A stretch of 63,709 nt of DNA, filler included, from Kipferlia bialata (taxonomy: Eukaryota): NCBI GenBank assembly GCA_003568945.1. It is 7 parts of 5 records of this genome, joined end to end, with 100 filler letters (N's around TTAATTAATTAA, not from the genome) between each part and the next. Parts side by side here need not be neighbours in the genome. Positions count along the whole stretch, not along the records: positions 14,518 to 20,855 come from BDIP01000054.1; positions 20,956 to 33,367 come from BDIP01000054.1; positions 33,468 to 44,739 come from BDIP01000054.1; positions 44,840 to 51,496 come from BDIP01000055.1; positions 51,597 to 62,414 come from BDIP01000058.1; 2 more parts are not named here. One strand, 5' to 3'. The translations under genes and the position numbers were made by a program. Under the pieces are notes generated by a model. That model was not told the DNA's origin. It ran no database searches and saw nothing but the letters and a program-made list of their open reading frames with translations. Position 1 is the first letter of the stretch. Every line of letters starts with the position of its first letter. Positions 14,518-61,264 of this stretch are shown piece after piece.

Positions 14518-14545
14518 CTGTGTCCTTTGGTGACACCACCGACAT

Positions 14546-14583
<38 letters not shown>

Positions 14584-14596
14584 CCTTAACTGTCAG

Positions 14597-15652
14597 GTTG
14601 GCCTAGCCGCTGTGTCCTTTGGTGACACCACCGACATGGGTGACATGCTCATGGACCATGGCAGTGAGGGGAGTGAGGATGGGAACAGGATGATGGACCA
14701 GGAGGAGCAGGTGTGTATAGGAGTGTATATATATAGAGAGAGAGAGAGAGAGACGAGGGTGGCAACAGGAATGATGGACGCTGAGGAGAAGATGAGTATA
14801 AGAGTGTGTATATCCCCCCTCCTCACCCCCCAGACCAACTGGCAGATGCTAATCAATATATATATATATATTTATGTATATATGCAATATAAATAAATAT
14901 CCCCCCCTCACCCCCAGACCAACTGGCAGATGCTGGTGGAGAATGCATCGGGGTGTCTGTGGAACATGACGCAGGTATGGGGGATACAGATAGAGTATAT
15001 ATATACTGTATGATGTAATGAGTCACATTTACATGTATATATAAATATATACATATATATATATATGCATCGGGGTGTCTGTGGAACATGACGCAGGTAC
15101 AGGGGATGCTATATGTATAGATATATGTGTGTGCAGATAGATAAATGCTGATAGATATATATAGATCGATAGGGTGGAACATGACCCAGGTACACGGTGT
15201 AATATGTATATATATATTTATATGTGTTCATTCTCTCAATATACATACCACTATAATATGTATATATATATATATATATGTATACACATCATACCCTTCC
15301 CCCAGGACGAGGCCGGAACTCTCCTATCAATGTATATGTTCATTCCCTCTGTACATATCACTATAGTATACATGATAGATATACATGTATATACATATAC
15401 ACTCCCCCCAGGACGAGGCCGGCACTCTCCTGGCTCTAGTATTCATATATATCAGTGGATATATGTATGTATACCAGTATGAGTATGCATCTATCTATAT
15501 ATCTCTATATACATATATATATATACACTAACTGTAGGACGAGGCCGGCACCCTCCTTGCCGTTGAGCATGGGGTGATAGATGAGCTGGCCCTCCTCCTG
15601 TGCCCACAAGTGCTCAGGGCCAGTGACGCGGTGGAGCTCACAGGTGTGGATG

Positions 15653-15688
<36 letters not shown>

Positions 15689-17663
15689 GCGACACAGTCA
15701 GTGCCATATATATACGCAGTCTCACTACTCCTTGGTAGTGATGATGAGCTCACAGGTACATGTGTATGTATTAACGCAGTGGAGCTCATAGGTATTTGTA
15801 TTTTCTATTACATATATATGGTATCGCTACTCCGTGGTAGTGATGCTGTGGAGCTCGCAGGTATATGGTGAGATCGTGCGTGGTATTGGACGCTCTCCAT
15901 ATAATCCCTCTCTCCCCCTCTACCCTCACAGTCACTAACCCTCCAGGCATCCATCCCCCACACACCCTGGACCGTGTGGTGTGTCCCCTTGTCTGTGGGG
16001 CAGGACTGGAGAACATCAGCGGGGCACTCTGGAACATATCAACAGTCAGACAGGTATGCGTAGTGATGTGTTGTGTGTATATTCCAGTCTATGGTCAAGT
16101 ACATGATACTTCTCATGATAGGCCCGTGCCCACTGCCGGTCTGCCCATGTCCTTGATACCATCGTGCACATGCTCATGCCTAGTCAGTGCCCCCTGGTCG
16201 AGGTGCTCACCAAGGTGGGTTGTATATGTATATCTATATATATATATATATCTATCTATTACAATATATATTACTAATATGTTGTCTAGTGCCCCCTGGT
16301 CGAGGTGCTCACCAAGGTATGTACACTGCATACCACATGGTATTTTACTACTACACTGGCGAAAGGGTCACGAGTGTATATATACCCCATGGTGTTTAGA
16401 TTGTATATACTTCCCCTTACCCCCAGGTCACCCTCGCTGGTGAGACAGAGAGGGAAGGGGAGAGAGAGAGGGAGGGAGACACAGCTGCCCACCTGTCCCT
16501 CACCCTGCAGACAATACTAGGTGGGTAGTGGGTTTACATATGCACATATGCATGGTCAGAGATATGGATATACTCATGTTGTAACCTCAATATGACCTCT
16601 CTCCCATTCGATACTTTTAGTATATTCCCCCCAACCCCAGGAGCCTGTCTGTCCCCCCCTACCATCACAAACCTCACGGGCTGCATAAGGTGAGGGTGCA
16701 TGGAGCTGTCTATGCATATAGCGCTGGGGCACAACTCATGGTACTGTTACGTCTTGGATTGTCTGACTTGCCCCTCACCCCCAGGAACCTGTGCATCAAC
16801 GACACCAACAAGCATGCTCTGCTGAAGCTAGGGGGGGTGCACTGTCTGTTAGGTAGGGCAGGGTGGATGTATAGATGTGTATATATGTGTAGTTGAATGA
16901 GAGAGTATGGTTGAAACAACTGGGGGAGAGGGGGGGGGGGGTTGCACTGTCTGCTAGGTAATTTAGAATATCTATCTATTTCATTACAGGCATATACCCC
17001 CTCTCACCCCCCAGGCATGGTTGCTGATAGATACGGTGTGCCCCACCGATACAGACTGACAGACACAGACGGGGAGGGGGAGGCTACCCCGCCCTCTGAT
17101 GACTCCCTCATCCTGTACACATCATCCCTGTCAGACGTGTCCAATGAGGTATGGGGCTCTCTTACATATATTGATATACATACTTCTTGTGTATTGCAGT
17201 GTACACATCATCAGTCTCTCTCTATATGAATATATATCCGTACACATGTATAGTGTCATTCACCCCCAGGCCATTGGCTATGCCCTTCCCTCATTCATAG
17301 CTCTCTCTCTCACTATATATATATATATATGTATCCATACACATATATAGTGTCATTCACCCCCAGGCCATCGGCTATGCCCTGGCTGCTCTGTGGGTCA
17401 TGTCAGTGCTGCCAGGGCCAGCGCTCAGGTATCAGATGTGTATATACATAGACACATGTGTATATACTGATTGTCGCTAGGCTTTGGTATCATTCATATA
17501 CAACCCAGCCCCCACCTCCAGCCGTGTCTGAGTCCCTCCACTCTATATGCATACATTCATAGTATTTTAGTAATTCAATACCATATGGATATGAGTTTCA
17601 ATTGCCATCCCACCCCCAGCCTGTCTGAGTCCCTGTCCACCCTATATATATATAGTCTCTCTA

Positions 17664-17694
<31 letters not shown>

Positions 17695-19352
17695 GTTAAT
17701 TACCTCCCAATCCTCTCCCACCCCCTAGCCTGTCTGAGTCCCTGTCTACCATCAGTATATATAGTCTCTCTCTCTCTCTCTCCCTCTCTCTCTATATATA
17801 TACATACCCGTTACCTCACCCAGCCTATCTGAGTCCCTCCCCACCCTGACCTCTCTCCTCCATGCACCCTCTCTAGATAGGGGGGTGGGACTGTCCCCTC
17901 TGCTGGGGGCACTGAGGAACAGCATACTACCAGGGTATGATATTGTTATGTGTGTATATATTGGGGAGAGAGTATATACTGAGTATATCGCTGGTGGGGG
18001 CACTGAGGAACAGCATACTACCAGGGTATGATATTGTTATATATATATATATATAAGGAGAGTGGTATATAGGGAGAGAGAGTATATATTGAGTATACCT
18101 GCTGGGGGGAACAGCATACTACCAGGGTACGGTGTATACACTATAGTGTATACAGATACAGTATTTGTACCCCCAACCACACCCTCCCCACCCTGTCGCA
18201 TTTGTAATAAGAATATATAGAAGTATGGATAGTAACAGTGTATACATACACTCACCCCAGCCACACCCTGCACTCCCAGTAGTGTGTATAGTGTATTTGA
18301 ATATGATTAGTTACAATGTATACACCCTGACCCCAGCCACACCCTCCCTACCCCTGCTCTGCTTGATGGCATATCCAGACACCTGGCCATCCTATCCCTC
18401 GACAAGGAGGAGGAGAGGGAGAGAGAGAGAGAGGAGGGCAGGGAGAGAAGGGCCACCCCACAGGCAACAGACTCAGAGACAGACGACCCGCTCAGGTGTG
18501 TACTATGTGTATGTTCCCTGCTATGTTCCTCTGTATGTCTTTGGTGTCCATACTCCCATATCCCTCACCCCCAGGTTTGCCCTGGCAGCAGGTGCAGCCT
18601 GTCTCGCAGTCTTCACAAGGTGGGTAGAATGACCTGTACTATATATGTAGTTTACATGTATTTGTATCCTCTCACCCTAGACTACCTTGTGGTCGACCCA
18701 TTGTCTACGTATATCTATATATGTATTTGGTGTACGACCGTCGGTTATGCTGCAATATATATATATACATCCCACCCCAGGCGTTCCACCGAGTGGTCCA
18801 CCCTGTCTGACCCCCTGCGTGTGTCTCTGTCCACCCTCCTGTCCCATGCCCTGGAGGGGGCACAGGCCATAGGGCACGGGGAGGGGACGCCGTTCGAGCA
18901 GGTGTGCCATTTGTATATAGTATACTAGGAATGAATGGATATACAGTATATATGGTATGTATGTATGGTTACAGGCCATAGGGCACGGGGACGGGACACC
19001 GTTTGAGCAGGTACTCTATGATATACGTGTATACATATACCTATGTGTATGTACATATATATATGTATATCCTCACCCCCAGGCCCAGGTCCGTGACCTC
19101 GTGGGAGTGGTGAGGGAGATTGCATCAGGTCCACTCTGCCCAGTGCTCAGGGGGAGGTATGGCAGTGCATGTGTTATATATTCATCACATGTATGTCCTC
19201 ACCCCAGCGTCCCCTCCATCCACTCCCTGTCTGCCATACCCGGTGTATCTAAGGGTGTCACCAGGGCCCTCAAGGCCATGGCTGTGTCATCCTCCAGTGC
19301 ACTCAGGGAGGAGGCACTCCCATACACACACAGGGAGAGGGCAGAGGAGTAG
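14597..19352 (+). CDS. Armadillo-repeat protein, 5' incomplete
   Basis: Spliced exons give ARM helix-3-like motifs LVENASGCLWNMT, LENISGALWNIS, NLTGCIRNLC, YALAALWVMS and LLGALRNSI; stop after ...RERAEE. Confidence 0.7.
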
Positions 19353-20802: not shown

Positions 20803-20849
<47 letters not shown>

Positions 20850-23800
20850 ACACGCNNNNNNNNNNNNNNNNNNNNNNNNNNNNNNNNNNNNNNNNNNNNT
20901 TAATTAATTAANNNNNNNNNNNNNNNNNNNNNNNNNNNNNNNNNNNNNNNNNNNNTAGACGCAGATGTGCTAAGATACTTCATACTACCCCCCCCCCCTC
21001 TTTACCCTCTGACCCCAGGGCCATCCGGGGCGGCATGGGCGTGTTCCACTCATCACTGCCGGACTCAGCGAGGTAAGGGGGTACTTCACGTAGTGTATGC
21101 CAACAGTACCAGTCTGTCCACATTACCATGTTGTTCTGACCCTCACCCATAGGAAGTATGTGACCCAGCCCAATCTCAACACCCCTCTCAACACACCCCT
21201 TAATGCACACCCCCTGGGGTCAGCAGAGACCGGGTCGGGTGAAGGCAGTGCCACCGATATGCTGTCCCGCAGTGTGTACACGTGTGTGGGGGAGACCGAT
21301 GGAGAGACACAGCGTCTATACAACGGGCCGGGTCTGATCAGGACCGACCCCAACGTGGTCATTGCCTTCATGCAGTGTGTCACCAGCAGAGAGGTAGTGC
21401 CTGGGGCACAGTACATCAAGGTGGGGATGGAGTAGTCTGTATAGTATTCATATTCTCTTACAACCCTTCTCTGTCTAACCCCTAGGACCTCATGGCCCTG
21501 ATGCGCATCCTGGACCTATTGGCGGAGAACTACCCAGGTATGACCTCTCTCTCTCCGCCTCCCGTCCTTACGATCACACCCTCGGTCTCACCCCAGGCAT
21601 TGACAAGATCAAGGGCTCCGACGGTTGTATGATCATGAGGTGAGCGGTGGAGTCGCCATGTCACTGACTCTTCCATTGATACCCCTCCATATTTATCACA
21701 TATTCATATATATATGTGTGTATACTTGTATAATACGTACACACCTTACCCCCCACCCCCAGGTGTGCTTCTAGGCTTGACATGCCTGCCTCTGACCCCC
21801 ACTGTGAGGCTGCCAGGAAGGCATACCAGTACGACTGTAGGCAGATGGTGCAGTTCTGCCTCTATGCCTCCCTGGTACGTTGACCCTATGTGGCTGCCCA
21901 ATATAGCTATTCTTTAGTTCTACATTTGGAGGCGAGGTATATCCGATTGTGTGTTGTTCTCCGTCCTGACCGCTAGGCCGTGGCCAAGCTGAGCAAGAAG
22001 GGCATCGAGCTGAGCACAATAGCAGGCATCAGGTGGGAAATAATGTAGTATAGATTGTGGGATTCTTTGCGCTATTCACCTCTCTTTCATCCCATTAACC
22101 CCCAGGTGCGGCATATCCAGTGGCAGTGTGACTGGTGGTGTCCTAGGCAGCTACGAGCTCATGTACGACGTGTTTGGAGACACAGTCAACACAGCAGCTA
22201 GGTGTGTAAGTCTAGGGGTATACCTATACCTATATCTATTTCCCTTGTGTCCCCCTCTCTTCTGACTCTTACTGACCCCCCAGGCTGATGTCTCTGGCCG
22301 ATGTGTGGGATGTGCTTGTCACAGACAGAGTGGCCACTGCTGTCACAACCATCACAGACTACTCGGCCTCCCCCTACGCCCACCACTCCCACGTCCACAT
22401 CATCCACACCCCCCCTGCCTCAGTCCACCTCAAGGGCAAGGGCGTGTCCAGGCTCAGGAGACTCACTGTGGCAGCTGAGAGCCTGCCCCACATGTCTAGG
22501 TTCTGTGAGGTATGCATGGATACATATCTACCTACAGCTCTCTTTGTCACTGACGTGATCCACCTCTGTGTACTACGGTACCTCGTACTCTCTCTATCCT
22601 ATGCCCACCCCAGGTGTATGTGGACATGATACTCAAGGGGTTTGACTCCACCACCACCTGGAAGGAGAAGGTGGGTGGAGCCATCATGATGCAGCGTCTA
22701 TATGTATATATATATATATATCTAACCCCAGATCATGATGCAGATGGCCATTGATACTCTCTCTCTCTCTCCCCCCCTATCTATCTATCTGTCTATCTGT
22801 GTATCTATCTATATATACACCTCTACCCCCAGATCATGATGCAGACTGCCATGCACTATCCCTCCAAGAGAGACCAGGAGAGAGAGAACCAGCACTCAGA
22901 GGCCTCGCCCGACCACATGAAGGTATATATATATCCCAGCCCCTCCCTAACACATCCATCCTGCACTGTCTCTCACCCCCCAGGCCCATCCGTACATGGA
23001 CGACTCGGAGCATGCCACCCTGAGGTCCATCCTGCGCACCCCCTGGAGCGTCATCAGGGCTAGGTGTGTGTGTGTATATAGATAGTCTACACCGGGTCCA
23101 TGTTTTCCTCTGGAATAGTACTAGGCCTAGTCTATCATCTCCCACCCCCAGGTTCGACACGGTCAAGACCCAGGCAGCAACCAGGCTCATTGCATCCACC
23201 TCTAGGAGCCCCTCCCCGCGGTCCCCCAGGGCAGGGGGCATCAGGGAGAGCAGCTCCCGGCCCTCTGCCCTCTCCAATGACCCCTTCCACCGGTCACCCT
23301 CTGCCCCAGCCCTGCAGTCAGGCCAGCAGCCCAGACGGCTACGCGGCATCACCACGGGGTCTATGGTGGCCAGGCTCAGCCCCCTGAGTGGGGATGGGAG
23401 TGAGTCCGAGGACTGGTCTGTGGATGGCCCCTCAGATGAGTCTGGTACCTCAGAGGACGAGAGCAGCGAGGATCTGCTGGATGACTATGACTTCGATGCT
23501 CAGTTGTGGGGCCAGAAGTCCTGGGCCCTCAGGAGTGGGGGTGTGCCTGGGGGGAAGGGGGGTAGGGGACAATCCTCGGACATCCTCGGGGAGATGACAG
23601 AGGGCCTGGACTCGTCCTCAAGGTACACCCAGTCCCACTCTGCTGTTATGCCTGGGTTGTGAGTAGTTACTGGTGTTTCATCATACATTAGTTCATGTAT
23701 TCATACATATACCTCAGCCTCTCACCCAGGTGTGTCTCCTCCGTGGCCAGGTTGGACAACTGCCTCCTCAATGAGCTAGAGGCCATGGACAGGAGCGTCA

Positions 23801-24435: not shown

Positions 24436-24469
<34 letters not shown>

Positions 24470-35395: not shown

Positions 35396-37027
35396 ATGTC
35401 TCTCGCTCGTGGCTTTTCCTCCGTTGCCGGAACTGCTCTGAAGAAGGTAACCCAATGTTATCGTCTGGGTGTCTGTGACCCTGCTTGACATGCTCTCCTC
35501 CCATACCCTTTGTCCCTCATACTCACCTAAGACCCCCCTCTGGAATCTCCACAATGAGTCTGGTGGAGACATGGTCTCCTTCGGTGGCTGGAGCCTGCCC
35601 GTGAAGGTATGATGAGTTTGATCATCATCCTCTCTCACATTGTCGAAGATAGTCATTCGAGATATGTATATCTCTGGTTCATTCCCTGCTCCTTACCCCA
35701 GTACCGCACTGGCATCATCGAGTCCCACGCCCAGTGCCGTGAGACCGGCGGTCTCTTTGACGTGTCCCACATGACCCAGCTCATGTTCACAGGTTAGACA
35801 CATCCTGTCAATCCACCCATTTCCGTTCTCTATCAATTCACACTACTCCATTCTGCGTATCACAATGGCGTTGATTCTAACCTAGGTGCCGACAGGGAGC
35901 TCTTCCTGGAGACCATCACCCCTGCCGACATCCAGGGTCTCAAGGAGCGCCAGATGCGCCTGTCCTCCTACCTGACCCCCGATGGAGGCATCATCGATGA
36001 CCTCATGGTGGTCAGACACTCCGCCAAGGTACGCGGGTAGAGTGATTGCCTCAATATGGGTGTGTGTCCGTGTGTATCCCTTCACCCCCCCCCCCCATTT
36101 CTCCCCCTTATTGTTGACCTGTCAGGACCAGGTGTTCCTCATCTCCAATGCCGCCACCAAGGAGAACGACGTCAAGCACCTCAACGACATGCTGCAGAAG
36201 TACTCCCACATGGACGTCCAGATCGAGGACCTCTCCTTTGCCCGTGCCCTCATTGCCGTGCAGGGCCCCGGGGTCAAGGCCGCCATGCAGCGCCTGCTCG
36301 ACTACGACTTCACCGCCCAGCCCTTCATGTCCCAGTTCTTTGGCTCCATCGAGGGCATTGATGTGTGGGTGGCCAGGTCTGGGTACACCGGCATGGACGG
36401 AGTCGAGATCAGCGTCGACGCCAAGGACGGAGAGAGGCTGGCCCGCATTCTGCTTGCCCAGCCCGAGATTGAGGCAGCTGGCCTTGGCCCCAGGGACTCG
36501 CTGAGGATGGAGGGCGGTCTCTGCCTCTACGGGTCCGACATCGACACCACCACCAACCCCATCGAGGTATGTGCAAATACATATGTATATGTGTGACTGC
36601 ATTTCATTCAATGGTGAAATACCATTTACTTAACCCCCTTTCCCCCTTCTGACCCCAGGCCGGCCTCTCCTGGACCATCTCCAAGAGGAGGAAGGAGGAG
36701 GGCGGGTACATTGGCGCCGAGGCCGTGAACAAGGTTCTGGAGCAGGGTGTGGTGAGGCGCAGGGTGGGACTTGTCATCGAGAAGGGCGCCCCTGCCCGTG
36801 CCCACTCCAAGATATACGCCGCCGACAAGGAGACCCTCATCGGCCACGTGACCTCTGGCATCTTCTCCCCCACCCTCAAGAAGCCCATCTCCATGGGATA
36901 CGTCAACGTGCCCCACCACAAGAAGGGCACCCAGGTGTTTGTGGAGGTGAGGGGCAAGATGCTGCCCGCCTCGATCAAGGCAATGCCCTTTGTGGAGGCT
37001 GGGTTCTACAGGGGCGGAAGCCTCTAA
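35396..37027 (+). CDS. gcvT: Glycine cleavage system T protein (aminomethyltransferase) with short N-terminal presequence
   Basis: MSLARGFSSVAGTALKK|TPLWNLH...MVSFGGWSLPV, GLFDVSHM, GGIIDDL, ALIAVQGP, ARSGYTGMDGVEI, GLGPRDSLRMEGGLCLYG and VTSGIFSPTLKKPISMGYV; strong C-ending codon bias. Confidence 0.97.
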
Positions 37028-44889: not shown

Positions 44890-47800
44890 CACCGCACGCT
44901 GTCCATCCTGCTCCTGTCCTGCCCTGCCCCCAGGCATCCTAGTACATACCCCAGTGCACACACACAGGGACAGACAGAGGGAGAGGGAGAGACAGATGGC
45001 ACTAAGCCCACTGACCTCCCAGCCTCTGGTGCCTCTGGTGCCTCCAGTAACCCTAGTAACCCTGGTGCCCCATCTCCCCCTGTGTCTGTGTCTGACTGTG
45101 CCAACCCCTGCCAACTGGCAGTGTTCTTCCTGCTCCCAGACAACACGCTCAGGTAATGCTGATATATAGTGTATATATATATATTCCTGATACATAACAC
45201 TGAAGTATATACTCCTGCTAACCCTCAGACTGGTGGGTGTCAGACCTGCTGGCCTGGCAGCATGTGGGGTGAGTGCAGGTACAGACAGTGCAGACAGTGC
45301 AGAGGGTGAAGATGGGGCAGATGCCAAGGGTGCAGAGGGTGCTGGTGGTGGAGACCCTGCTGTAGGTGCTGCTGCAGGTGGTGCCGAGGGTGCCCAGCCC
45401 ACCCCCACCCCTGCCTCTGCCTCTGCCTCTGCCACTGAGGGCAAGGGAGGGGACATGGGCATGGTCAGGTATGTACAGACACATAACTGATATATATATA
45501 TATATACATGTATAGTGAGAGTATAGGTCATACATCCATGGATAACCCTCACCCCCCAGGAACCCCTGCTACCACATGCTGAGCACAGTGGTTGTGGAGT
45601 ACCAGCTCACATGGAACCAGGTGGGTACATGGTGTATATTAATGTATGTGTAAATGTATGTATATTGTTAATATCTATACGTGCTGATACCAGCTCACAT
45701 GGAACCAGGTGGGTGTATCAGTATCAGTATATTACGCACACATATGGAATATATTCTATTGTGCACATATACCCATCCCTCACCCCCAGGTTGACTATGT
45801 TGCCTTGCATGACTCCGAGCTCCTCAGGGCCATCAGCCCCTACCTCTCCCACGCTGCATCCCTCACCAAGTGTCTGTTGCTAGACTTCTCCACCCTGGCA
45901 CTGCCCACACACAAGGTACTGATAGTGATACTGATACTACCTACACCCATGGTATATATATATATATATATGATACTGACCCCCCAGGCCAGTGGCACTG
46001 ATACACCCCTGACCCAGGAGCAGCACCTGCTCAGGACACACAGGTGGGGTGTATTATGTATATATATAGTATTATTATATAATATGTGTATTATGTATAT
46101 ATTATGTATATACTGAGGACACTATATCTACCAATCTCTCCATCCATCCACCTCTGACCTGCCAGACAGGGCCTGCAGTGCTTCCTGGACCCCAACCCAA
46201 CGGTGTCCAGGGCTAGGCTCGAGGAGGTGTGTATACTTTAGTATACTTATGTCCATACATATAAGTGTGCGATGGATATTGATATTATATTTCAAATATG
46301 AACTGTGTGATATACCGCCCTGACGAGAGTGTACATATAGAGGTATATAGATCTCTCTGCGCGATTGTATGTGTTGGCCGGACCCTCATGACCCTCTCTC
46401 TCTATATACATATATATATATATATGTGTGTGTGTATGTGTTTATATATATATATATCCCTCTGACCCTCCAGGCCAAGTCCACCATGGACGCTGCATGT
46501 GCACAGGATGTGGATACATACCATGCCATAGTCACAAAGACAGGTATATATATACATATATATACTTGTATATATTTATGTGTGTGTGTATATATATATA
46601 GATACTGTGTGTGTCCTGATATAGTATATATATATACACATATATATAAGATGGACTGTCCCCTGACCCAGGCAAGTACAGCAAGCAGAGCACCCCCCTT
46701 GTGAGACCTATCAAGAGAGAGAGAGAGAGAGAGAGGGCTGGTGACCCCTGCCGCCGACTGAGTCTGGAGGGTCTGATGGCCTCTGCCACCCAGGCCAAGA
46801 GGAGGCCAGACCCATACCTGCCAGACCCACAGCCAAGGTATGGATATGTATGAGTATGTTTGTATATATATATGTACATGGTATATGATACTGATACCTG
46901 CCAGACCCCATGGCAGTGCAGCCAAGGTATGGATGTGTGAATACAAATATTAGTATTATCATCACCATCCCCCTCCTCCTCACCCCCCAGGCTGTATGAC
47001 ACCACCCCCATGCTCCCCCTACTACCCCTGGACATGGCATCTTCTAGGGCACAGCCGGCCCCCCCCACCACCCACAACCCCAACATGGCCCGGTCTGCCT
47101 CCCTCCCCCTATTCCCCTCTGTGAGACCCCTGTCCTCAGCTGTCCAAGGGCTGGGTCTGTCATCATCAGCTGTACAGGGGCTGCAGGGGCTGGTCAGTGC
47201 ACAGGTGGAGGCCGACCACAACCACACCCACAACCCCAACCACAACCCCCCAAGACACAGCATCAGTCCCAGCCCATCAGACGGCATAGCACATGGTGTG
47301 AGGCACATGCCGGGGCAGCCCTTACAGGGTGTGCAGCCCCTGTTCCCGTCTGAGACTGTGCCACACATGCAGAGTCAGGGGGTGTCTGGTGGACCCACTG
47401 TGCAGGGCACGTCCTGTCTCGACCCATCAAGACACAACCCTGCTCTGTCGATGCACCCCGTGGTGCCAGTCTGCATCAGTGCGGTCACAAACACTAACAC
47501 TAGTACTAACAGTGGTACTACTACTACTGGGAGTGGCACTAGTGGGAGTGACAGTGGCAAGGTGACTGTGTCCAGCACTGCTGCCAGGATAGACGACATC
47601 TTCAACGGGTCCATCACGAGACTGGGTAGTAGGGCCAGTGCACTTGGGGCCAGGGCGGCACCCATGAGTGCCATCACTACACCCTCCACACCCCCTCCCC
47701 CTGTCAACAGCCTGGCCTGGTGGGTGTCGTATGCTGAGGACATGCCCAGCCTGGGTGTGAGGGTGAGGGGGTACCACAGGCTGCAGTCACTGCTCACGGC

Positions 47801-48102
47801 ATGCCCAAAGGTGTATGAGGTGGGGACGTGTATTGGTATATATGTATATGTATGGGTGTGTATGTCTATAGTGTGGTACTTACCCCCTCCCCTCACCCGC
47901 GCAGGCCTCCAGGGTGTTCAAGGACGACAATGAGTGTGTATATAGTATATGTACTTGTATACTCTCTCTATATATATAGTATATATAGTATATATAGTAT
48001 ATATATAGTATCCTACCCCAGGCCTCCAGGGTCTTCAAGGACGACAATGAGTTTGGCTACATGGCCCAGTACAACGGAGACATGCTGGGGATGTGCCACG
48101 AC

Positions 48103-48865: not shown

Positions 48866-51372
48866 TCAGAGGGTATACCCCTCCTCCTCTAGCCGTTCTC
48901 TCTCTCTCTCCCTGGCAATTGCATCCTCCTCGTCATGCATCTGAGGGTGAGAGGATAGAGAGAGAGAATATGGCATGTAGACATATATATATATATATAT
49001 ATATATTTGTATATACATATATATACTATCCTCCTCGTCATGCATCTGAGGGTGAGGGGTATAGAGGCATTATGGCATATATATATAAATATATGTGTGT
49101 GTGTATATGTGTATATATATAGGCATTCCTCCTCGTCATGCATCTGAGAGGGTGAGGGGGTGTAGAGGCAGTATGGCATATATATGAAATGTATATGTGT
49201 GTGTATATGTGTATATATATAAGCATTCCTCCTCGGCATCCATATGGTGGGTGAGGGAGTATACACAAATGGAGAGGGGGGGAGAGAGACTCAGTAGAAA
49301 GGTGGATATTGTCCTCTTCCTCTCTATCTATGCATTTACACACATATCCATAAATCCTGCTCTGGTATCTGTACCAATGCATATACAGACACACATATAT
49401 GTATATACACACATATATATACATGTACATAAACCCACCTCCTGCTCCGGTATCTGTACCAATGCATATACAGACACACATATATGTATATACACACACA
49501 CACACACACATATATATACACATATACATATCCATACCTCCTGCTCTGGTATCTGCACCAGCACCAGCCCCACATTGTCAGGGGCACCAAAGGGGTTCCT
49601 GGGGTGGGGTGTGTACAGTTTGAATATCCAATGGTAGAATGACACCACATATACATTTATGACGGGCCCAAAGAGGTATACGTGGTGAGGAATTATACAA
49701 TCCCAATGAATGCGAGAGTGTTTTTCTAAATTGATAAACGGGTACCTGTCCCTCTCCCCTGTCAGCTGTGTCAGCTCTCCAAAGCACAGGCCCTGCATCT
49801 TGTTGATGGCCTTGAACTGGCCCTGGGGTCAATGTATGTATATATAGAGAGATAATAGACAGACATATACATATATATAGATAGAGAGATATATATATAG
49901 ATATAGATAAACATACATACATATATATATAGATGGGCCTTGAACTGTCCCTGGGGGTCAGTACAGATATCTAATATACATCCCTTCAGCTCTGGGGCCA
50001 TAGAGATAGTTGGATAGATAGGTATAGACAGACAGCCTATGTCTCATACGCATACCTTCAGCTCATACTCTGTGGCCACCGTCGACACTTATACATACTA
50101 TATATACTTATTAATATGTCTAAATATATATCTATATATATTAATGGTCCTTCCCCTACCTTTAGCTCATACTCTGTGGCCACCGTTGATGGGTACGCTG
50201 TGGGTATGTCAAATATCCTGGGTATTGGGTTCTTGAGGGTGTGGATCAGGGACTCCTCAAACTCAGCCCTGGGGGTGGGGGAGAGCACACAAGGAGAATG
50301 GAGAGCATAGTATTGAAATACGTATACTGTATATTATTGTATACTAAATACTGTTGTATAAGGGACTCCTCAAACTCAGCCCTGGGGGTGGGGGGTGGGG
50401 GAGGTATATAGGGAGTGTAGTTAGTATTGTATAATCTATAGTATAACAATTGTAAATCTAATACCAATATATAAGGGACTCCTCAAAAACTCAGCCCTGG
50501 GGGGAGGGGTATGTATACACAAAGAGAATATAAAACTCAGTATACACTATAGAAATACACATTTTACTTTGATTACTATATCACAAATCCAAAAGAGACT
50601 CCTCAAACTGGGGGTGGGGGACATATTGGGAGTATATATGTATAATGTAAGAATATACTCTAATATATCCTCCCTGAACACATCCATTCATGTATCCACA
50701 CGTCTATAAACACCTGAACACTTCAATATACATATATCCATCTATACCCACCTGCATACACCTGGGTGGCCTTCTATATATATGAATGTATATATACATC
50801 CATATATACATATATACCCACCTGAATACATCTGCGTGACATTGGTTGAACTCAGCATCTGTGTCCTGAGGTGGGAGGATGGTTACACATGTATGCTAAT
50901 TATATATGTAATAGATAAATGATACATACATCACCCAGCATCTGTGTCCTGGGGGTAGGTACATGTACATGAAGGTGTGTACTAAGATACAAGGTGTGAT
51001 ATAGACAAGTGTGATACATAAGTGACTCAGCATCGGTGTCCTGGGGTGGGAGGATGGTCATACATAGATATGACATGATAGACATAGATATGACAGATAT
51101 GAATATGATAAATATGGATGGGAGATGCATAGAAGAGTGGCTAGGGGAGGGGTAGGGGGTGTGCACTCTATATAGTATATAGTATATATCGATGAGGACT
51201 ATCTCGGATTGAATACAAATGCCATCGGCATAGAGGCTCAGTCTGTCCCTCAGGCTAGATATATATGTATATATATATATGTATAATACCATACCTCCAT
51301 GTACATATAGTATATATGGTATATATACGATGCCCATACCTCCACCAGTTCAGACAGGACCTCCTCCAGACA
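48866..51372 (-). CDS. Hypothetical multi-exon protein, 5' end in gap
   Basis: Spliced ...AEFEESLIHTLKNPIPRIFDIPTAYPSTVATEYELK|GQFKAINKMQGLCFGELTQLTGERDR|NPFGAPDNVGLVLVQIPEQE|MHDEEDAIARERERERLEEEGYTL*. Confidence 0.65.
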
Positions 51373-51596: not shown

Positions 51597-51648
<52 letters not shown>

Positions 51649-51670
51649 CATTATTTATTCCTGACCTAAG

Positions 51671-53165
51671 GCCTCAAGGGCGATGTGGATGAGGTCGCTG
51701 ACCCCTCAGCGGATGATGAGTGGAGTGACTCAGTCAGTGCTGTGTTTGGGGATGATCCAGAGATTGAGGGTCCAGAGGGAGAGAGAGAGAGGGAGGGAGA
51801 GGAGGAGGAGGATGCTGCAGATGCTGAGGAGAGGCTCTTTGTGGAGAGCTCAACCTCTGTCGCTGCACCTGCCACTCTAGACGGTCTAGACGGTCTAGAT
51901 GGGGGTATTTCTACCCCCCTCCCTGGCATGCATGATGTCCCTGTCCACTCTGAGGTTGGACATGCATTGGGGGTCTCATTCTTCAACAGGTATGTCCTCT
52001 TGCCAATCCATATCCGTCTCTCTCTCTCTCCTTATCAGTTATACATGCATTGGGGGTCGCATTCTTCAACAGGTCCTGCTACTTCCCCCCCGCTCTCTCT
52101 CTACATGAGTACCTTGCACCAGCTTCCAGTGACCAGTTCTTATGAATATATATATAAGTCATGGATCCCTCACCCCCAGGGCCCAGCGTGTTCTGAGACT
52201 AGTCGGTGCCTACAGCCCCTTCTTCCCCTTGGATGTATTTGGGGCAGCATTTGACGCATCTGTCGTCATGGTGAATAGGTATTTATGTATAGTGCAGTAT
52301 ATACTCTGTATGCATGTGCCCTCACTCTCCTCTGACGCCAGGATCCTCCCCTCCCTCCTCTCCGCTGTCCCTCCCCTCCCTGTCCAGAACGAGTTGTTGC
52401 ACTACCTGTCCAAGGTGTGCCCCTCTCTCTTCGACTCCTGCCTCTCCCCCTTGGTGGAGAGTGAGCAGGACGGGGACACCCCCTTCTGGATGGGTGCCAT
52501 ACCCCCAGAGTGGCCAAGGGGACCATTCACTAGAGGGTTCGGTCTGCCTATGGTAGAGGAGACACGGGAAGAAGAGGCAGAGTACATTACACCAGAGGTC
52601 CTGCTCATTGCCACGAGGTACATGCCTTCCATACAATATATCAAGAGCAGTATATATATATATATATCTCACCCTACTAGGTATGTCCTGCTTGGTGCGG
52701 CCTCCCTCTCTGCTGTCGGCATAGCATCCTCTGCACCCCTCTCCCCCCCTTGCCAGTTCCCCTCCTACCTGTGCCCCAGCCCCCCTACGGCACTGCCTAG
52801 AGACATACTGGGGGCAGGGCATGATGCATTCGCCCAGTGCATCAAGGATAAGCAGGTATGCATCTCAGCCTCTCACTCACAACTCTTTCACGCCACCCCC
52901 CATCACCCTACACTCTGTGTGTGTGTGTGTGTATGTGTATATACTTACCACCCAGACTGCCATGGACCTCTTTGCCGATGGGTGCATGTCCGCAGAGTAC
53001 GGCCTGGCACTCTCAATGTGAGTAAGTCTCTCTCTCTCTCTCTCTTTATTAGTATGTCTCTTTCTTTCTTCTTCTATCTTTCTCTATTCTTCCTCTCTTA
53101 CCTCTAGGGAGGCCAGGAAGTGGATAGTGCACGCATGTACCATAGAGGCTGGCCGGAAGCTGTGA
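51671..53165 (+). CDS. Hypothetical protein with acidic region, 5' incomplete
   Basis: In-frame exons ending ...ALSM|EARKWIVHACTIEAGRKL*. Confidence 0.65.
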
Positions 53166-53459: not shown

Positions 53460-53497
<38 letters not shown>

Positions 53498-55000
53498 CTA
53501 CTGAGAGAGTACCCCCTGCTGGGTCAAGACCTGGGGTGCCACAACAACTCCCTCAGCACCTACTGTCTCGCCCTCTCCCTCTGCAGTCTCTCTCTCTCCC
53601 TCACCCTGGGGGTCACCGTTGACGTCATCAGAGTACACCTCGGGGGTGTCAGCCACCATGGCGGAGATCTGGAAGTGAGATACATCGACATGTATAAGAA
53701 TTACCGAATGTATTTATATAGATATAGTGCATAGATTAATCCCACCTGAGTGGCGTTGACTGCCTCCAGCTTGAGCATCCGACGCAAGTATATACACACG
53801 CATATAAATATAGATACATATACATACAGTATCTAGGTACCATTCCCACCTGTGTGGCGTTGACTGCCTCCTGCTTGAGCATCCGACGCAAGTATATACA
53901 CAAACACATATATATTACATATGGTATTATTCCTTACCTGTGTGGCGTTGACTGCCTCCTGCTTGAGCATCTGGACACTGGCCGAGGTGTGTCTGTGGGC
54001 ATCCACAGCCTGTCTGGCCTCAGAGGCAAGGGTGGCTGGGGTGAGAGATATGGTAGGTGAATACGAACAGAAGGAGACTGACTAGGATATTCTGATACTA
54101 TAGACGAGTGAGAATCAGAGGCAAGGGTGGCTGGGGTGAGAGAGAGAAGAGTAAGAGATAGTAGGTGAAGGAACAGAAGGAACAGAAGGAGAGTGACTGG
54201 GTCAGACTCAACTAGATAGAGAGAGTGACAAAAGGAGAGGGGGGGGGGGGGGGGGGGCCCCCCCCCCGGGGGGGGGGGGGGGGGGGGGGGCGGGGGGGGG
54301 GGGGGGGGGGGGGGGGGGGTTGCGAGTGTAAAACACTCAATTACTGCTGTCTCAACTTCAGAAGTCAATATTTGAGCACCATGAGAGTATTCATACATGT
54401 ATATATCCGTATCCGTGCATGCCCTACCCTAGAGAGTGCCACCACTTCCTGCCTGTCAAGGGGGGCGACAGTGAGGACAGGGGTCTCTGGGGTGAGTGGC
54501 AAGAAGAGAGTATACAGACGTGACTCACGAGTTATAGACACATGCATTCAGAGACTAGTGAGTGTAATACCCATATCCCATACCTTCTGGCAGCAGAGCA
54601 GTCACTGAACCACGGAGAACAGGGGGGATGCCTGGTGGTTAGAGAGAAGAGAAGGACCAACAGAGAGACAATGAACATATGGCACCCTCCTCCGAACACT
54701 GAGGACGTGAATGCACACACATAACCTAAGCCCCAATAGACACCCACCTGCCAGCAGTGATGTTGCAGCGTATGGCTTCGGCTGTGCTATGGTGACCCTG
54801 TTCACAAAGGAGAGTCGGGCGGCAGCCAGTGTCTTGGCATACAGCCCCAGCTCACTGACCCACAGACCCTCGAAGGTGTCTACATAGCGCTCCACGGCAC
54901 TGATGAGCCGGGGTGGGTCGTATCTAGTAGACCTAGACACAAAGGCATCCAGCACACCACTCAGAGGGAAGGCAACACCGCCTGGGCTCCCACTGGACAT
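53498..55000 (-). CDS. Hypothetical protein (phase conflict across the poly-G/C intron)
   Basis: MSSGSPGGVAFPL...; 3' exons TLASEARQAVDAHRHTSASVQMLKQEAVNATQ|ISAMVADTPEVYSDD...LSQ*. Confidence 0.55.
54238..54319. repeat. Long poly-G/poly-C/poly-G homopolymer tract in an intron
   Basis: Directly visible in the sequence. Confidence 0.9.
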
Positions 55001-55206: not shown

Positions 55207-56147
55207 ATGCAGAGGTACGGTTGCTGAGACATATTTATGGACAGGATAGCTGCATACGGTTGCATAGTGGCTCTAGTAGTGAAACTATTCCTGTGTATTG
55301 TGTTCCCTTGTGCGTGGTTGTGCATCTCTTTGGTGTTTTTCCTCTTTTCCCGCTGATTTCAGGTGTACTAAGGTTATCCCACCTCACAAGAGGGCCGTGG
55401 ACCCCACCAAGCCCAAGCCTAAGGCTCGTAAGTCCACCCGCGGAGGCCCCCCCTCTGCTGGTGCCTTTGCCAAGAGGAAGTCACCACCTAGTGATTTCCG
55501 TCGTTACTACGACAGGTTAGTTGAGTTATTTACGTTATGGACCCTGTATGATGAATAATGATATTGTGTCATTGGTGGAGGGTAGTGTTGAGGCTGTATT
55601 AGGTTCCAACACTCCTATAATTCCTGGTATACACGAAGTATTTGCAATGTACCCTCTGCAGTTTCATACGTATTCCCTTCCATGGTACGTGAACCCTCCC
55701 AGAGTGTGTGTCTCTCTCTATTTCTCATGATAAGGGAGACCTCCCCATTGCTGTGGAGCACACAACCCCTCTCTCTCCCCCCCACCTCTCTCTCTATATA
55801 TATCTTACCCTAGAGGTGACCTCCCCATTGCCGTGGAGCACACTGCCGGTGGCAACAGGGTGCTGTGGAAGGTGGAGATTGAGAAGCTGGACTTCCACCA
55901 CTACCTCCCAATCTTCTTCGACGGCCTCAGGTTTGTATGTGTGTGTTCGTATACAATATATATCTTACGTATCATGTCTATCCCCCCCCCCCCTTCTATA
56001 TATACAGACATATACCTAGGATTCTCCTTCCCGTCATGTATTATCCCTCTCCCCTCTCGCTACCTACCGTCTCTCTACTTACCCTCTCTCTACCAATATG
56101 TGTCTCATACTAGGGAGCAGGGCCACCCCTATGCCTTCCTCTCACGT

Positions 56148-56193
<46 letters not shown>

Positions 56194-57055
56194 CCCCTAG
56201 GGAGCAGGGCCACCCCTATGCCTTCCTGGCCAGGGAGGGTACCATCAACATGCTGGAGCACGGACAGTCCAAGATCCTGCCAGTCGTGCCACAGCTCATC
56301 ATCCCCATCAAGGTATATATCAATTAGTATATATATATTTATATATATGTACATATATACAGTATAGTACATATATGCATTGATAGAGACACAGCTCATC
56401 ATCTCCATCAAGGTATGTATAGTAGAAATATATGTATTTTTTTGTTATTGAGGATCTCATCTTAACTTATATATACACATTGGATTACATATATGTATTG
56501 GTAGAGATACAGCTCATCATCCCCATCAAGGTATAAACTACATACAGTGTATTAACACACACATGCATTGCTTAACTATGTAGTATTTAGTATATAGCAA
56601 ATATATCTCCCTCACACCAGACCGCCCTGAACACCCGTGACCCCGAGATCATCTGCCGCGTGCTGCATGTCCTCCAGCTGCTGGTGGTCAGTGGGGAGCT
56701 GGTGGGAGAGGCACTCGTGCCATACTACAGACAGGTGGGTGTAAATAGATGTATATCTACTCTGTATCAGTGTAGATCCTGACCCCCCAGATCCTGCCTG
56801 TGCTCAACATCTTCATCAACTGCAACAGGAACATTGGAGACAGCATCGACTTCAGGCAGAAGAAGAGAAACTGCCTAGGTATAAACATGTATTCATACAC
56901 AGTCCTTTATACGTCGGGTATACCCTATACTATACACTAACATCCCAGGCGACCTCATCCACGAGACCCTCGAGCTGCTGGAGAGGCATGGTGGCCCCGA
57001 CGCCTTCATCAACCTCAAGTACCTGATCCCATCCTGGACCAGTGCAGTGCTATAA
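55207..57055 (+). CDS. PACRG: Parkin co-regulated gene protein (axonemal inner-junction protein)
   Basis: [84 protein letters not shown] and [14 protein letters not shown]. Confidence 0.97.
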
Positions 57056-57370
57056 GCACTGTGTGTATTGTAGGGAGAGCATAGATAGACTGACGGTGTA
57101 CAATAGATAGACATTCAAGTAATGGCGTAGAGGGTGAGATCGATTGAGTACCTGATCCCATCCTGGACCAGTGCAGTGCTGTAGAGGCCATATATACTAG
57201 TCCCCTAGTGGTATAGGGCGGTGTAACAGCAATAGATAGACATTCAAGAAATAGCCATGGAGGTGTGAGTTCGCTTGCAGACCACAATAGATTGACATTT
57301 GATTGTAACTGCTTTCAAAGGGACTCTCATTTAGAAACCAACAGAAGATATTTGAGGTATTTAGTTGGTC

Positions 57371-60300
57371 CTATCGCCGCCCCTGTGACCTCTTGACCGA
57401 GGGCGACCCTCTCTCCCTGTCTCTCTCCCTCTCCCTGAGTCTCTTTGCAGCCTGGGTCGGTCTGGCCAACTCTTCAAAGGGGTCGGGGGAGGCATCCCCT
57501 ACCTGGTGTTAATACATATATCTTTAAGTATCAGTATATATACTGATACTGATAGAGTATATACTGATACTAAGGTACTCTTCAAAGGGGTCGGGGGAGG
57601 CATCCCCAACCTGGTATAAGTATAGATAAAAGTATTAGTGAATAAACTGTACTGAGACATCCTCTGCCTGCGTATATCAGTATCAATATGATAAGTTGAA
57701 TTAGTATGAATCCACTGACGTAATGGCTTTGATATGTGTATGCGATGCACCCTGTACCTGTGTGGCCGTGGGTCCAGGGCGTGCAGTCTTGGTGACTGTG
57801 TGGGGGGTGGGCTGGGACTTGGCCTGCTTGGCCTTCTGGGGGGTCAGGGATAGAGGCATATAAATATATATATATATATATACATAGAGAGAGAGAGAGA
57901 GAGAGAGAGGAAGGGGACTTGGCCTGCTTGGCCTTCTGGGGGTCAGTTGGGATTGGGAAATAGATGTATATATGTGTACAGAGAAAGAGAGGATGATATA
58001 TAACTCTATAGAAATAGAGAGAGGAAGAGTACTTGACCTGCTTGGCCTGCTGTTCGGGTGGTTAGGGGGAAAATTCATAAACTCATGCAATACCATAAAG
58101 GAATAGATCCATAATGCTGATCACAACAATCCCTACCTTGTCCTCCCTGGCCTTTGCACTCTCGTGTGTGGTGTGGAGCTTGGTCACATCGGTGTAGGAG
58201 TCACTGGGGGTCAGGAGGAGGATTGCCCTGCACTGTGCATTGCTGTCACTCATTAGTACACCACTTATATATGCACTACCATATTATATTCTATATCTAC
58301 ATACCGCATTGCCCTGCACTGTGCATTGCACTCGGGTGTGGCCTCGGCACTGCCCTGGGGTGAGACAGGAGGAGGTCACATATCCAATATACAGCTACAT
58401 ACATATATATATACCTTGCACCGGGACTCCGCCAGACTCCCTATGAGAGTGTACATACCAACATATCCCATACGCACACACATATATGTGTATATGTATA
58501 TATATACTATATATGATACAACATATTCTGTACATACCTAGCACGGGCACTCTGCCACGACTGTCTAGAGGAGTGTACACACCCATACATGTATATATGT
58601 ATATATGTATATATACACAATACGTATAAGGGTATTACTATACCTTGCACGGGCACTCTGCCAGACTCCCTATCAATGTGGCCTCTGGCAGGTGTACCTG
58701 ACCCCTGGAAGAGGGGTCGCAGAAGATGGCATGGGACTCAACACCATCCTGGGGTGAGAGAGGGAGATATATATATATATATATATATAAATATGTAACG
58801 TACCCCGAGTGCCTGTTTGACCCTCCTGAGCAGTCTCAGCCTAACAAGCTCAGTCACTGCCTTAGCCCATCCGTCCACACGCCTGGCTGAAGTGTTAGAC
58901 ACCCATACACATGGATACATGATATATGAATATACACACACATATATATACTATTTACATACCTTCCTCCAGAATGTATGCCGCACTCCTGTCCTCTACC
59001 ATGCCGGGAGGGACCACAAGCTGGGGTTAGACAGCAGTTGAATACAATATTCTAAAATAACTTCTGTTATAGTACCTTTGTTTTGTGTATTTCATAATTA
59101 CACTATGTACAAACATACGAGTATACCTTCCCTTGCTGTGTGGCAACCATTGCCTCTGGTATGGAATACATATACATATATGACTACAATGTAATAATAC
59201 TAATACTATCATACAATATGGTATACAAAACATACAATATCTAAGCCTACCTTCCCTAGCTGCGTGGCCAGCATTGCCTCTGGCATGGTGTGGCCATGCT
59301 TGGCCAGGAAGGACCTGGGGGTTAGTGTATATATATACATGGATATATATACATATTGTATAATTTAATATAAATATACAATAGAATACAATGAATGAAT
59401 AGAAGGCTTGGCCAGGAAGGACCTGGGGGTGAATACATACATGGACCCATGCAAATACATATGGATCTTTGGACTGAAACTTCAGGAAGCAGTATGTGCA
59501 GTCTACCCCGAAGAGTCTCTCCCACACTTTCTCTCCCCCCATACCCATTGATATAGTATGTGTTACTGATACCTTATGAAGTAGTATGTGCCGTCTGCCT
59601 CTGCACTGTTGGCAAAGGGAGAGAGTATATATATATATATATATGTATACATATATATATATACATATATATATTCATACCTAATGAAGTAGTATGTCCC
59701 ATCTGCCTCTGCACTGTTGGCAAAGGGAGAGAGAGAGGGGATGTCAAGCTGACAGGGGGACAGGTCGCTGGGGTGAGAGGTATGCACATACATATCACAC
59801 TCACACCTATATATACATATACCCACCTGATGTTCATGCCATACTGGTCTGTCAGGCCAAAGTGCTGCACACTGCCACTGAACCTGGGGGGTGAGGAGGT
59901 AAACACACATACATATATACCTGGGGGGTTGAGGATATGACTGATTGCAAACATGGTTATACATGTATTGACACGAATTGCATGTATATGTGTGACCATA
60001 CCTGGACCTAGCCACCTGCTCTCTCATGTACTCCTGGGCCTGGCTGTACCTAGGGGGTCAGAGGGAGCGAGAGAGATAAGGAGGTAAGATACAGCGCCAC
60101 CTAACAACACTACACACATACAACATTCATATACAACTATGTTTCATATATCACATACATATAGTATATCATATAATACCTCTTATCCACCGATGTGTGC
60201 CCCACCCCGTCTGCCCCCACCCTCTTGTGGGTGAGGTAGTAGGACAGACCGGCAGAGGTCTGGGTGCTGCCTAGGGTTAAGAATAGGAGAGCCCTGTATA

Positions 60301-61264
60301 CTAGAAGTGTAGACTCATTTACTATAGTGAACAATAGAGTCTTATACTACAGGAGTATCAGTATTTGTAGGACAGACCGGTAGAGGTCTGGGTGCTACCA
60401 ACGAGGTTGAGACTAGGAGACTCACTTCAGTGTTGAAATATAGGACCTGTATCATCCAATAGATGGATATAGTGGTGATATACCTACGTCCAGATGCAAG
60501 TTCTCCAGAGACTTGGTCCGATGGAGGTGGGAGATGAGCCTGGGGTCAGGGATAGACACGGTATTCTATCCTCATCATAATGCATATATCGCCTTTCAAC
60601 ACCGTTTACCGTGACTATGCACTATACGCTCTATACCAGAGTGGGCATACCTCTCTACCAGCTTTCCATCACACACCATTATACAATATATACAATACTG
60701 AATCTGAATTACACACTGTACCTCTTGACCAGCTTCCCATCATTCCTGTCCAGTCCCAGACAGTACTTGGACAGAAACTCAGCAGACACACCGACTGGGG
60801 GTCAGAGAGGAATAATGGATATAACACACCCACACATATACATACTCTTGGGGCAAGGGAGGAAGGGTATGTGTGTGAGGGAGTGAGAGAGAGCACCTAA
60901 CGAAATCTACCAGTCTTGACCAGTTGATATGAATACATATACATACTCATATATATGAAAACTATAGCACCTGGCCTAGACCCGTTGACAATGAGGTACC
61001 GCATCAACTTCAGGGCCCTTCTGAGAGGTGAGACAGTTGTGATGTTCTCAAATAATAGAAATGTGTACTCGCACATAAATGTATATGTAAAGAGTGCATG
61101 CATACCCACCTATTGTCTCTGTTCTCCTGCTTCTCCTCCCTGGCCTCCCTGGCCTCTCTCTCTCTCCTCTCTGCCTCTGTCTCCACATGGGGGAGGGCCT
61201 CTGCACCTTCCTCCTCTGCAGGTGCCTCAGGGGCAGGCTGGGGCTTGGGGGCAGGCCTAGGATT

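Follow-up and report, generated by a model that had tools for sequence, protein, structure and literature searches.

Mirage-like copies of exon edges in introns of Kipferlia bialata, with an identity step at the splice site and coding-type divergence

In a 63,709-nucleotide stretch of the Kipferlia bialata genome (assembly GCA_003568945.1; seven parts of five records joined by fillers, hereafter the window, fillers included), local alignment of 24-nt exon edges with their own introns detected copies of the exon edge, here called echoes, inside 30 of 190 modelled introns. Both boundary types, donor and acceptor, are duplicated. Boundary copies are already a known kind of repeat; what differs here is that identity steps down at the splice site and that changes on the exon side are mostly synonymous. 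We give an even chance to the explanation that the echoes arose by out-of-register recombination between diverged alleles, the survivors being only those duplications that contain one splice site.

At a score threshold of at least 12, the 24-nt probes gave 18 donor and 17 acceptor matches across the 30 introns. The same probes matched introns of other genes at rates of 0.02% and 0.06%, reverse-complemented probes gave 0 matches and the far-exon-edge control gave 1/314. A junction-anchored scan found 53 copies (null: 5/8454) with an exon part of 10–53 nt and a period of 71–128 nt in 48/53 (median 101 nt). The earlier note on this DNA, made from the sequence alone, had reported such echoes in at least eight genes with one to three recurrences per exon edge and had proposed self-alignment against controls as a check; run on the window's introns, a check of this type bore out the echoes, which lie in genes B1, C1, E1, E2, F1, F2, PACRG and F5 (Table 1), and the anchored scan found the same one to three copies per edge. 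The spacing is tighter than the 50–160 nt that it gave.

An automatic gene parser rendered the echoes as micro-exons, and seven echo-rich genes were therefore curated by hand. Most reading frames are those of our own gene models, and use of the first donor and last acceptor was assumed during curation except in three PACRG introns. Four of 21 regions (A3, B2, D1 and G1) were omitted as uncertain, as were introns beside exons shorter than 25 nt, leaving the 190. Two of the 53 anchored copies were excluded from the spacer comparison and three from the later identity, scoring and codon tests (a copy that lacked AG and matched the exon upstream, an acceptor echo that had been scored with the donors, and a copy off register by one base). 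The output of a generic repeat finder was dominated by TA runs.

Table 1. Echo-bearing genes and introns of the window, with related features
Feature	Position	Strand	Details
Copy of the start region of B1's first modelled exon, cut by gap	14518..14545	+	28 nt identical to 14610-14637, 92 nt apart
B1 intron	14711..14917	+	old donor echo 14771-14791 (GT lost); acceptor echo 14834-14850
B1 intron, 563 nt	14975..15537	+	donor echoes 15065-15096, 15174-15189; acceptor echoes 15306-15325, 15412-15434
B1 intron	15644..15946	+	three donor echoes (15746-15860)
B1 introns	16215..17366	+	donor echoes 16288-16316, 16936-16957; acceptor echo 17270-17286
B1 introns	17429..19082	+	donor echoes 17991-18025, 18108-18126, 18971-19010; acceptor echoes 17620-17643, 17729-17743, 18177-18193
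Sole echo-bearing intron in the echo-poor pieces	22671..22832	+	acceptor echo 22732-22751
gcvT gene, echo-free control	35396..37027	+	0/5 introns; product equal to a K. bialata protein
Gene E1	45621..48021	+	donor echoes 45688-45708, 46894-46938 (gapped); acceptor echo 47905-47938
Gene E2	48941..51339	-	donor echoes 49354-49461 (2), 50056-50085; acceptor echoes 49028-49243 (3), 49936-49950, 50355-50496 (2), 50933-51040 (2)
F1 intron	51990..52179	+	donor echo 52043-52072
F2 intron	53669..53937	-	donor echoes 53850-53883, 53746-53779
PACRG gene, 7 exons	55207..57056	+	Pfam ParcG exons contiguous in profile; spliced contigs and DNA contig
PACRG echoes		+	acceptor echoes 55734-55763, 56114-56140; donor echoes 56390-56412, 56509-56530
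Duplicate of PACRG stop-codon region	57018..57252	+	129 nt, without splice site
Gene F5	57503..60721	-	donor echoes 58219-58243, 58415-58557 (2), 59127-59164, 59573-59625, 60651-60671; acceptor echoes 57577-57610, 57914-58049 (2), 59406-59422, 60367-60398

The distribution is patchy. Echoes occur in 28/60 introns of the pieces at 14518–20855, 44840–51496 and 51597–62414 and in 1/130 introns of the other three pieces tested (Fisher p 9e-16), so that the word 'pervasive' in the earlier note describes the former pieces and not the latter; gcvT, one of the genes that it had listed as nearly lacking echoes, has none. Added units make up 4961/11672 intron bases in the rich pieces, and 29/34 introns of at least 150 nt carry an echo. 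These counts agree with the suggested route to intron growth. The suggested gain is not supported: among our own gene models, 0/197 adjacent exon pairs are alike at their edges, and neither a new exon nor a new intron came to light.

Over eight exon bases, echoes match the real site at 133/144 positions in donors and 129/136 in acceptors (about 93%). On the intron side, 67/144 positions match at donor +3 to +10 (48.9 expected from consensus) and 78/170 at acceptor −20 to −11 (52.1 expected), an identity of about 47%, and the step falls at the splice junction. The intron sides are homologous yet far more diverged than the exon sides. When each exon was compared with the nearest echo of its family (35 copies, 748 sites), 26 of the 43 differences were synonymous and 29 lay at third positions; pN/pS was 0.19 (family bootstrap 0.08–0.37), whereas a plain duplicate predicts at least 0.5, and a stratified null expects 17.0 synonymous changes (P 0.0036), figures to be read with the small counts and the selection of echoes for exon-side likeness in mind. 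A separate deduplicated count, leaving out copies more than 15% diverged and the four outer bases, gave 35/59 synonymous. Between echoes, private changes were 6 synonymous and 12 non-synonymous, and changes common to all echoes 3 versus 0. After insertion the echoes appear to decay neutrally.

Slipped recombination between divergent alleles is favoured because the copies differ from the exon as two working versions of a gene do. It would begin with alleles whose exons are near-identical and whose introns are much more diverged. A slipped exchange would then join a break some 80 nt inside the intron of one allele to a point 10–55 nt within the exon of the other, leaving the exon edge doubled. 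Later exchanges through the exon copy would add units, keeping the first joint and bringing in a new intron flank, a step that is partly tested. Duplications within exons or spanning a whole intron would be purged, and those with a single splice site are likely retained since the intact exon is still spliced; the sites bordering that exon are used and the decoys leave with the intron, as shown for three PACRG introns. In keeping with such a route, metamonads lack NHEJ and depend on modified homologous repair (PMC8516963). The narrow period and the confinement to three pieces are features for which the allelic model does not account.

Ordinary tandem duplication within one chromosome, by slippage or end-joining, with selection sparing only units with one splice site, is a real if minority possibility; it is the standard reading of mirages, the boundary repeats of amphioxus. 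The spacers would decay fast through repeat slippage, and the exon would later drift or be converted by other alleles. Homology between spacers of neighbouring units is positive in 36/50 pairs, as ordinary duplication would have it, but significant in only 5/50, which tells against plain tandem duplication, as invoked in the earlier note, for most units. One array (48982–49263) is called a tandem repeat of 100-nt period by TRF, several new joints have themselves been duplicated, and in 4/30 families whose exon sides are nearly identical, identity on the intron side likewise reaches 75% or more, as plain duplication predicts. Runs of (TA)4+ are commoner in the echo-free introns of rich genes (0.075 vs 0.015). 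Against ordinary duplication stand the pN/pS below its 0.5 floor and the drop in identity immediately past the GT. In echo–echo pairs, moreover, the flank at the joint is alike (z≥2) in 8/15 and the flank at the splice site in 3/15 (Wilcoxon p 0.04), although the two are equally AT-rich. Duplicates of 60–140 nt are absent from 2701 intergenic bases where 4.9 would be expected at genic density, in a scan whose threshold differed from that of the echo scan and in DNA that may be constrained. Microsatellite-seeded breakpoints, the driving force proposed in the earlier note, were rejected: 6/50 new joints adjoin a (TA)3+ run and 11.6 are expected.

An insertion targeted to splice junctions, of filler about one intron long with a target-site duplication of 10–55 nt, brought in by an intron-like mobile element or through repair linked to transcription or to RNA, would explain why homology stops near the splice site. 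Spacer length also fits normal intron length (median 79 nt, equal to that of echo-free introns; KS p 0.21), and for most spacers the likeness does not exceed that among other introns. We nevertheless consider it improbable: intron-side identity exceeds background, the base bias of the spacers follows that of the corresponding intron ends (G-rich for donors, C-rich for acceptors), and the synonymous excess is left unexplained. One duplicate, moreover, sits at a stop codon, that of PACRG. Its last two codons are CTA TAA in the gene but CTG TAG in the duplicate, preserving Leu and stop through synonymous swaps, which also speaks for the allelic reading, and a 23-nt downstream block is retained in both.

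The earlier note had suggested that the echoes may represent an undescribed route to intron growth or gain, but such copies have been described. In amphioxus, tandem copies of exon–intron boundaries named mirages occur in Adh3, globins BflGb6 and BflGb9, troponin C and PGBD5 (PMC3087553, PMC3902484); their mechanism is called unclear and they are proposed as a route of intron gain (PMC3087553). As in those accounts, the copies lie in tandem at either intron end, AG or GT survives in many of them, splicing of the mRNA is normal (here in three PACRG introns, contigs of three runs) and unit length falls within the reported 10–160 bp. We class the echoes as mirage-like since units are not alike over their whole length (5/50 pairs; one TRF array), whereas BflGb6 units are described as 81–100% alike. 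They further differ from the mirages so described in their host, a unicellular fornicate with short introns, in having only one to three extra copies, a narrow 100-nt period and coding-type exon divergence, and in being present in roughly half the introns of some regions. The 37-bp VNTR of human F7 intron 7 is similar in that the first unit spans the exon–intron boundary and the most upstream donor is used while downstream donor copies are silent, and dissimilar in being a single locus of identical minisatellite units, with donors only, under a mammalian spliceosome (PMC1557585). Intron gain by tandem genomic duplication likewise involves duplication near splice-like signals removed by splicing, but creates a new intron, whereas here existing introns lengthen (PMC3265369). 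A literature search (supplements outside its scope) turned up no description of repeats of this type from Kipferlia or any other fornicate, and the main text of the genome paper makes no mention of duplication, heterozygosity, ploidy or alternatives.

The identity step and synonymous excess offer a quantitative handle on the mirage mechanism, testable genome-wide in any mirage-bearing organism. If their origin is allelic, the echoes indirectly point to diverged alleles recombining in a free-living relative of Giardia; if it is not, they are a dense yet ordinary case of tolerated duplication debris. More tentatively, and leaning somewhat towards doubt, we suggest that mirage-type repeats in general could be the traces left when hyper-diverged alleles, anchored to each other by their homologous exons, recombine out of register; in this fornicate they would then be a record of outcrossing and a main driver of intron length. 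The same mechanism could account for the lancelet mirages, and splice sites would be chosen across exons in a protist whose introns are short and whose spliceosome is reduced; K. bialata is reported to keep 87/174 spliceosomal proteins (PMC6679479).

Splicing was followed in PACRG, read data being examined over 54400–56320. Three runs (X2, X3 and X4), taken as RNA by guess and with contigs that skip introns, splice from the first donor to the last acceptor in three PACRG introns; the most upstream donor, 56312, is joined to the next exon in all three. The rule that the in-frame exon takes the first donor and last acceptor is thereby confirmed for these introns and assumed elsewhere, and the decoys are ignored by the spliceosome in PACRG, one of the two outcomes that the earlier note had allowed for. 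The echoes do seed decoy sites: 17/26 donors and 17/24 acceptors score in the normal range, and the real site outscores its echo in only 17/26 donors and 13/24 acceptors. Weakening of the decoys would play a weak part at most in their silencing, and the choice is likely set by position rather than site strength. With about 50 strong decoys 100 nt from real sites and introns of about 80 nt, the system lends itself naturally to testing exon against intron definition.

Retention of GT in 23/26 donor echoes and AG in 20/24 acceptor echoes might point to functional decoys, which would let long introns be excised stepwise (recursively) or would serve regulated alternative splicing, and since contigs drop rare isoforms, use at a low level might escape notice. 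We think such a role very improbable: PACRG yields a single isoform across the three runs, and decoy use would introduce a stop or frameshift in 45/50. Recursive splicing uses AG|GT ratchet points. Donor echoes mostly read AG|GT, but they come without the branch-point and acceptor context used by K. bialata, and recursive splicing was rejected: only 1/26 donor-echo ends scores as an acceptor, and exons of acceptor-echo families start with GT in only 2/17 cases against 41/190 overall. Nor did introns show the equal numbers of donor and acceptor echoes needed for nested splicing.

Diverged haplotypes stacked in tandem by the assembler would give coding-type divergence, the window consists of seven pieces joined by spacers, and DNA run X1, checked over 54400–56320, may be the window's own source. 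Yet we give such an artefact scarcely any credence. In one 850-nt X1 contig the PACRG exon end occurs two times with the same 100-letter spacing that the window shows, and the depth is 475, close to the 471 of single-copy DNA; a loose end fits the sequence behind the third copy, and no alternative intron contig is listed for X1 in that interval. Joints recur among diverged copies, and donor echoes precede acceptor echoes in 5/5 introns with both types, unlike the order of stacked alleles. X1 shows no other letters over 54400–56320, and two RNA samples agree with the window's exons except for a single-base insertion in a contig of low depth; as no second allele was seen in either, we infer the allelic divergence rather than observe it. 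A metagenome scan for a second isolate (15/64 parts) yielded one distant PACRG locus, which is echo-free. Two short deep contigs in one DNA sample may hint at copy-number polymorphism or somatic instability.

A repeat scan without low-complexity seeds returned 80 local repeat pairs, nearly all within three pieces of the window. Echoes, i.e. copies of an exon edge with its splice signal inside the exon's own intron, were present in 30 of 190 introns (18 donor, 17 acceptor). Probes against introns of other genes gave null rates of 0.02% and 0.06%, the reverse-complement control gave no exon-edge copies and the far exon edge matched in 1/314 cases. An anchored scan placed echoes in 28/60 introns of pieces B, E and F versus 1/130 in A, C and D. 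Median intron length was 262 nt with echoes and 79 nt without, and 29 of the 34 introns of at least 150 nt carried one; subtracting the added units (echo plus spacer) left a core with a median of 94 nt. The period had a median of 101 (71-128 in 48 of 53 copies), and multiples of three were not favoured among these copies. Coding CpG observed/expected was 0.26 in the echo-rich genes and 0.41 in the echo-poor ones, and GC of echo-free introns was 36% (B, E, F) versus 43% (A, C, D), a contrast that, judged by composition, would be a regional mutation regime.

Part of 54400-62300 is present in four runs, and our read check covered 54400-56320. In the DNA run X1, record 4 (850 nt, depth 475, compared with 471 for single-copy record 1) contains two copies of a PACRG exon end at the window's spacing of 100 letters, and its loose end agrees with the sequence that follows the third PACRG copy. 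Record 1 spans an acceptor echo and continues into the spacer, and a 31-nt record (depth 600) fits a 31-nt word common to another echo and the real exon. These contigs are a separate assembly, perhaps of the same reads as the window, and not an independent sample; over 54400-56320 they list neither an alternative contig for an intron nor any deviating letters. The window echoes are real.

The earlier note held that splicing uses the first donor and the last acceptor. This stands for three PACRG introns, across which contigs from X2, X3 and X4 (runs we take to be RNA-like; two samples) connect 55515 with 55814, 55930 with 56201 and 56312 with 56621; contigs lose rare forms. In other genes it was assumed as a curation rule, whose only backing is that 45 of 50 decoys (splice sites in echoes) would bring a stop or frameshift if used. 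Because decoys equal real sites in strength in many cases, position, read across the intact exon, probably decides the choice, either as exon definition (PMC3488318, in part) or as 5'-3' scanning (PMC1557585, in part).

A plain tandem duplicate predicts an intron part about as alike as the exon part. Between real sites and their nearest echoes, the eight exon bases adjoining the junction were identical at 133/144 and 129/136 positions, compared with 67/144 at donor +3 to +10 (48.9 expected from consensus) and 78/170 at acceptor -20 to -11 (52.1 expected). The intron part is thus far less alike, contrary to that expectation. Among 30 families (echoes of one exon edge) with an exon side at least 90% identical, a side selected for likeness, the intron side was at most 50% identical in 24 and at least 75% in 4; picking young copies should lift the intron side as well. 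Gapped alignment found neighbouring spacers significantly alike in 5/50 pairs and above the null mean in 36/50. When echoes were compared with one another, likeness persisted in the flank at the new joint, where copied exon meets intron sequence, in 8/15 pairs and in the splice-site flank in 3/15, at similar AT content (0.68 and 0.64; p 0.04), a result that speaks against AT-rich hypermutability as the sole cause. New joints avoid dinucleotide runs (7/50 versus 17.5 expected).

On the exon side, real exon and echo differ in the manner of coding sequences. When a single echo represents each family (35 copies, 748 sites), there are 43 differences, of which 26 are synonymous and 29 fall at third positions; under a null in which transitions and transversions are stratified, 17.0 synonymous ones are expected (P 0.0036). 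The pN/pS between exon and echo was 0.19 (bootstrap 0.08-0.37; 35 copies), whereas 0.5 is the value for a dead copy next to an exon under full constraint. Together, the 53 raw copies held 42 synonymous versus 35 non-synonymous differences. Changes private to one echo were near neutral (6 synonymous versus 12 non-synonymous) and one creates a stop; the echoes therefore do not code at present. The duplicated PACRG stop region follows the same pattern, with CTA TAA versus CTG TAG, unlike sequence behind and then a conserved 23-nt block.

The earlier note suggested that this may be an undescribed route to intron growth or gain; that it is undescribed is contradicted by amphioxus 'mirages'. As far as the consulted parts of the reports go, these are tandem copies of either exon boundary with normal splicing and 81-100% unit identity, for which the mechanism is called unclear and an intron-gain model is proposed (PMC3087553); they also occur in PGBD5 and troponin C (PMC3902484). 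The window echoes share four mirage features but lack whole-unit likeness, and we therefore file them as mirage-like. Our literature search, with subscription papers largely outside it, returned no protist report and none of a synonymous excess in repeats of this type. Mirage-bearing animals are generally highly polymorphic.

The window's echo pattern has, by sequence, the look of two long-separated working alleles side by side, which favours the origin to which we give an even chance: exchange out of register between alleles that have diverged, with exon homology as the anchor, after which selection would retain only units carrying one splice site, further exchanges would run through the exon copy and echoes would decay neutrally. 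No second allele was seen in the X1 contigs over 54400-56320. The main rival is duplication within one chromosome, after which spacers would decay rapidly and the real exon would later be converted. The 4-5 young whole-unit duplicates agree with this reading, which we regard as a less likely alternative; both processes may be at work. Allele exchange leaves unaccounted for the confinement to three pieces and the match of spacer length to normal introns (median 79, KS p 0.21). NHEJ is missing in metamonads and Rad51A in fornicates (PMC8516963, in part), losses that make unusual homologous repair plausible but say nothing on the echo sites.

The window is intron-rich, eukaryotic DNA. Models came from a small parser, with seven echo-rich genes curated by hand; 17 were kept, with no internal stops, and two parser introns (97 and 116 nt) match RNA joints exactly. 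Labels such as B1 and E2 are provisional, identity being assigned for gcvT and PACRG only. The last gcvT exon matches the Kipferlia bialata protein at 122/122 residues, and PACRG exons run end to end along the Pfam ParcG profile (10-47, 49-86, 87-123, 152-183). In 121/161 echo-free introns, a branch-point-like motif lies 2-6 nt upstream of AG, resembling the fused sites reported in diplomonads (PMC6679479, in part).

Coordinates of features in the window
Feature	Position	Strand	Observation
Pieces B, E, F	14518-20855, 44840-51496, 51597-62414		echo-rich
Pieces A, C, D	1-14417, 20956-33367, 33468-44739		echo-poor
Piece boundaries	14418-14517, 20856-20955, 33368-33467, 44740-44839, 51497-51596, 62415-62514		the same spacer six times (44 N, 12-base AT motif, 44 N); seven pieces split mostly at homopolymer or dinucleotide runs
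Intron start repeat	13150-13244	-	echo-poor piece, opposite pattern: 19 identical bases, mostly intron start, 76 nt apart, ~3 exon bases
Modelled gene	21011-27450	+	28 exons, ~1420 aa; two stretches resembling class III nucleotide cyclase domains flank a membrane-like region
gcvT exon	36126-36566	+	100% identity to Kipferlia bialata protein; next Chilomastix 59%, Dysnectes 55%
Intron of echo-rich gene	46227-46473	+	247 nt, no detectable echo; may hold fully decayed units
Acceptor echo, PACRG	55734-55763	+	spanned by X1 record 1
Echo, PACRG	56110	+	shares the 31-nt word with the real exon
Two X1 contigs	56289-56319		31-32 nt, depth 1150 and 850, two other letters each; exact match to 0/3 assembled copies (our count); possibly further copies or variants
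Distant PACRG	L001:900-921		very short introns; one sits one base off window intron 56313-56620 (read by eye)
Normal-length intron	58204-58304	-	101 nt: spacer, donor echo without GT, 15 nt ending in acceptor; seems an echo-bearing intron shrunk back, exon sequence recycled into intron
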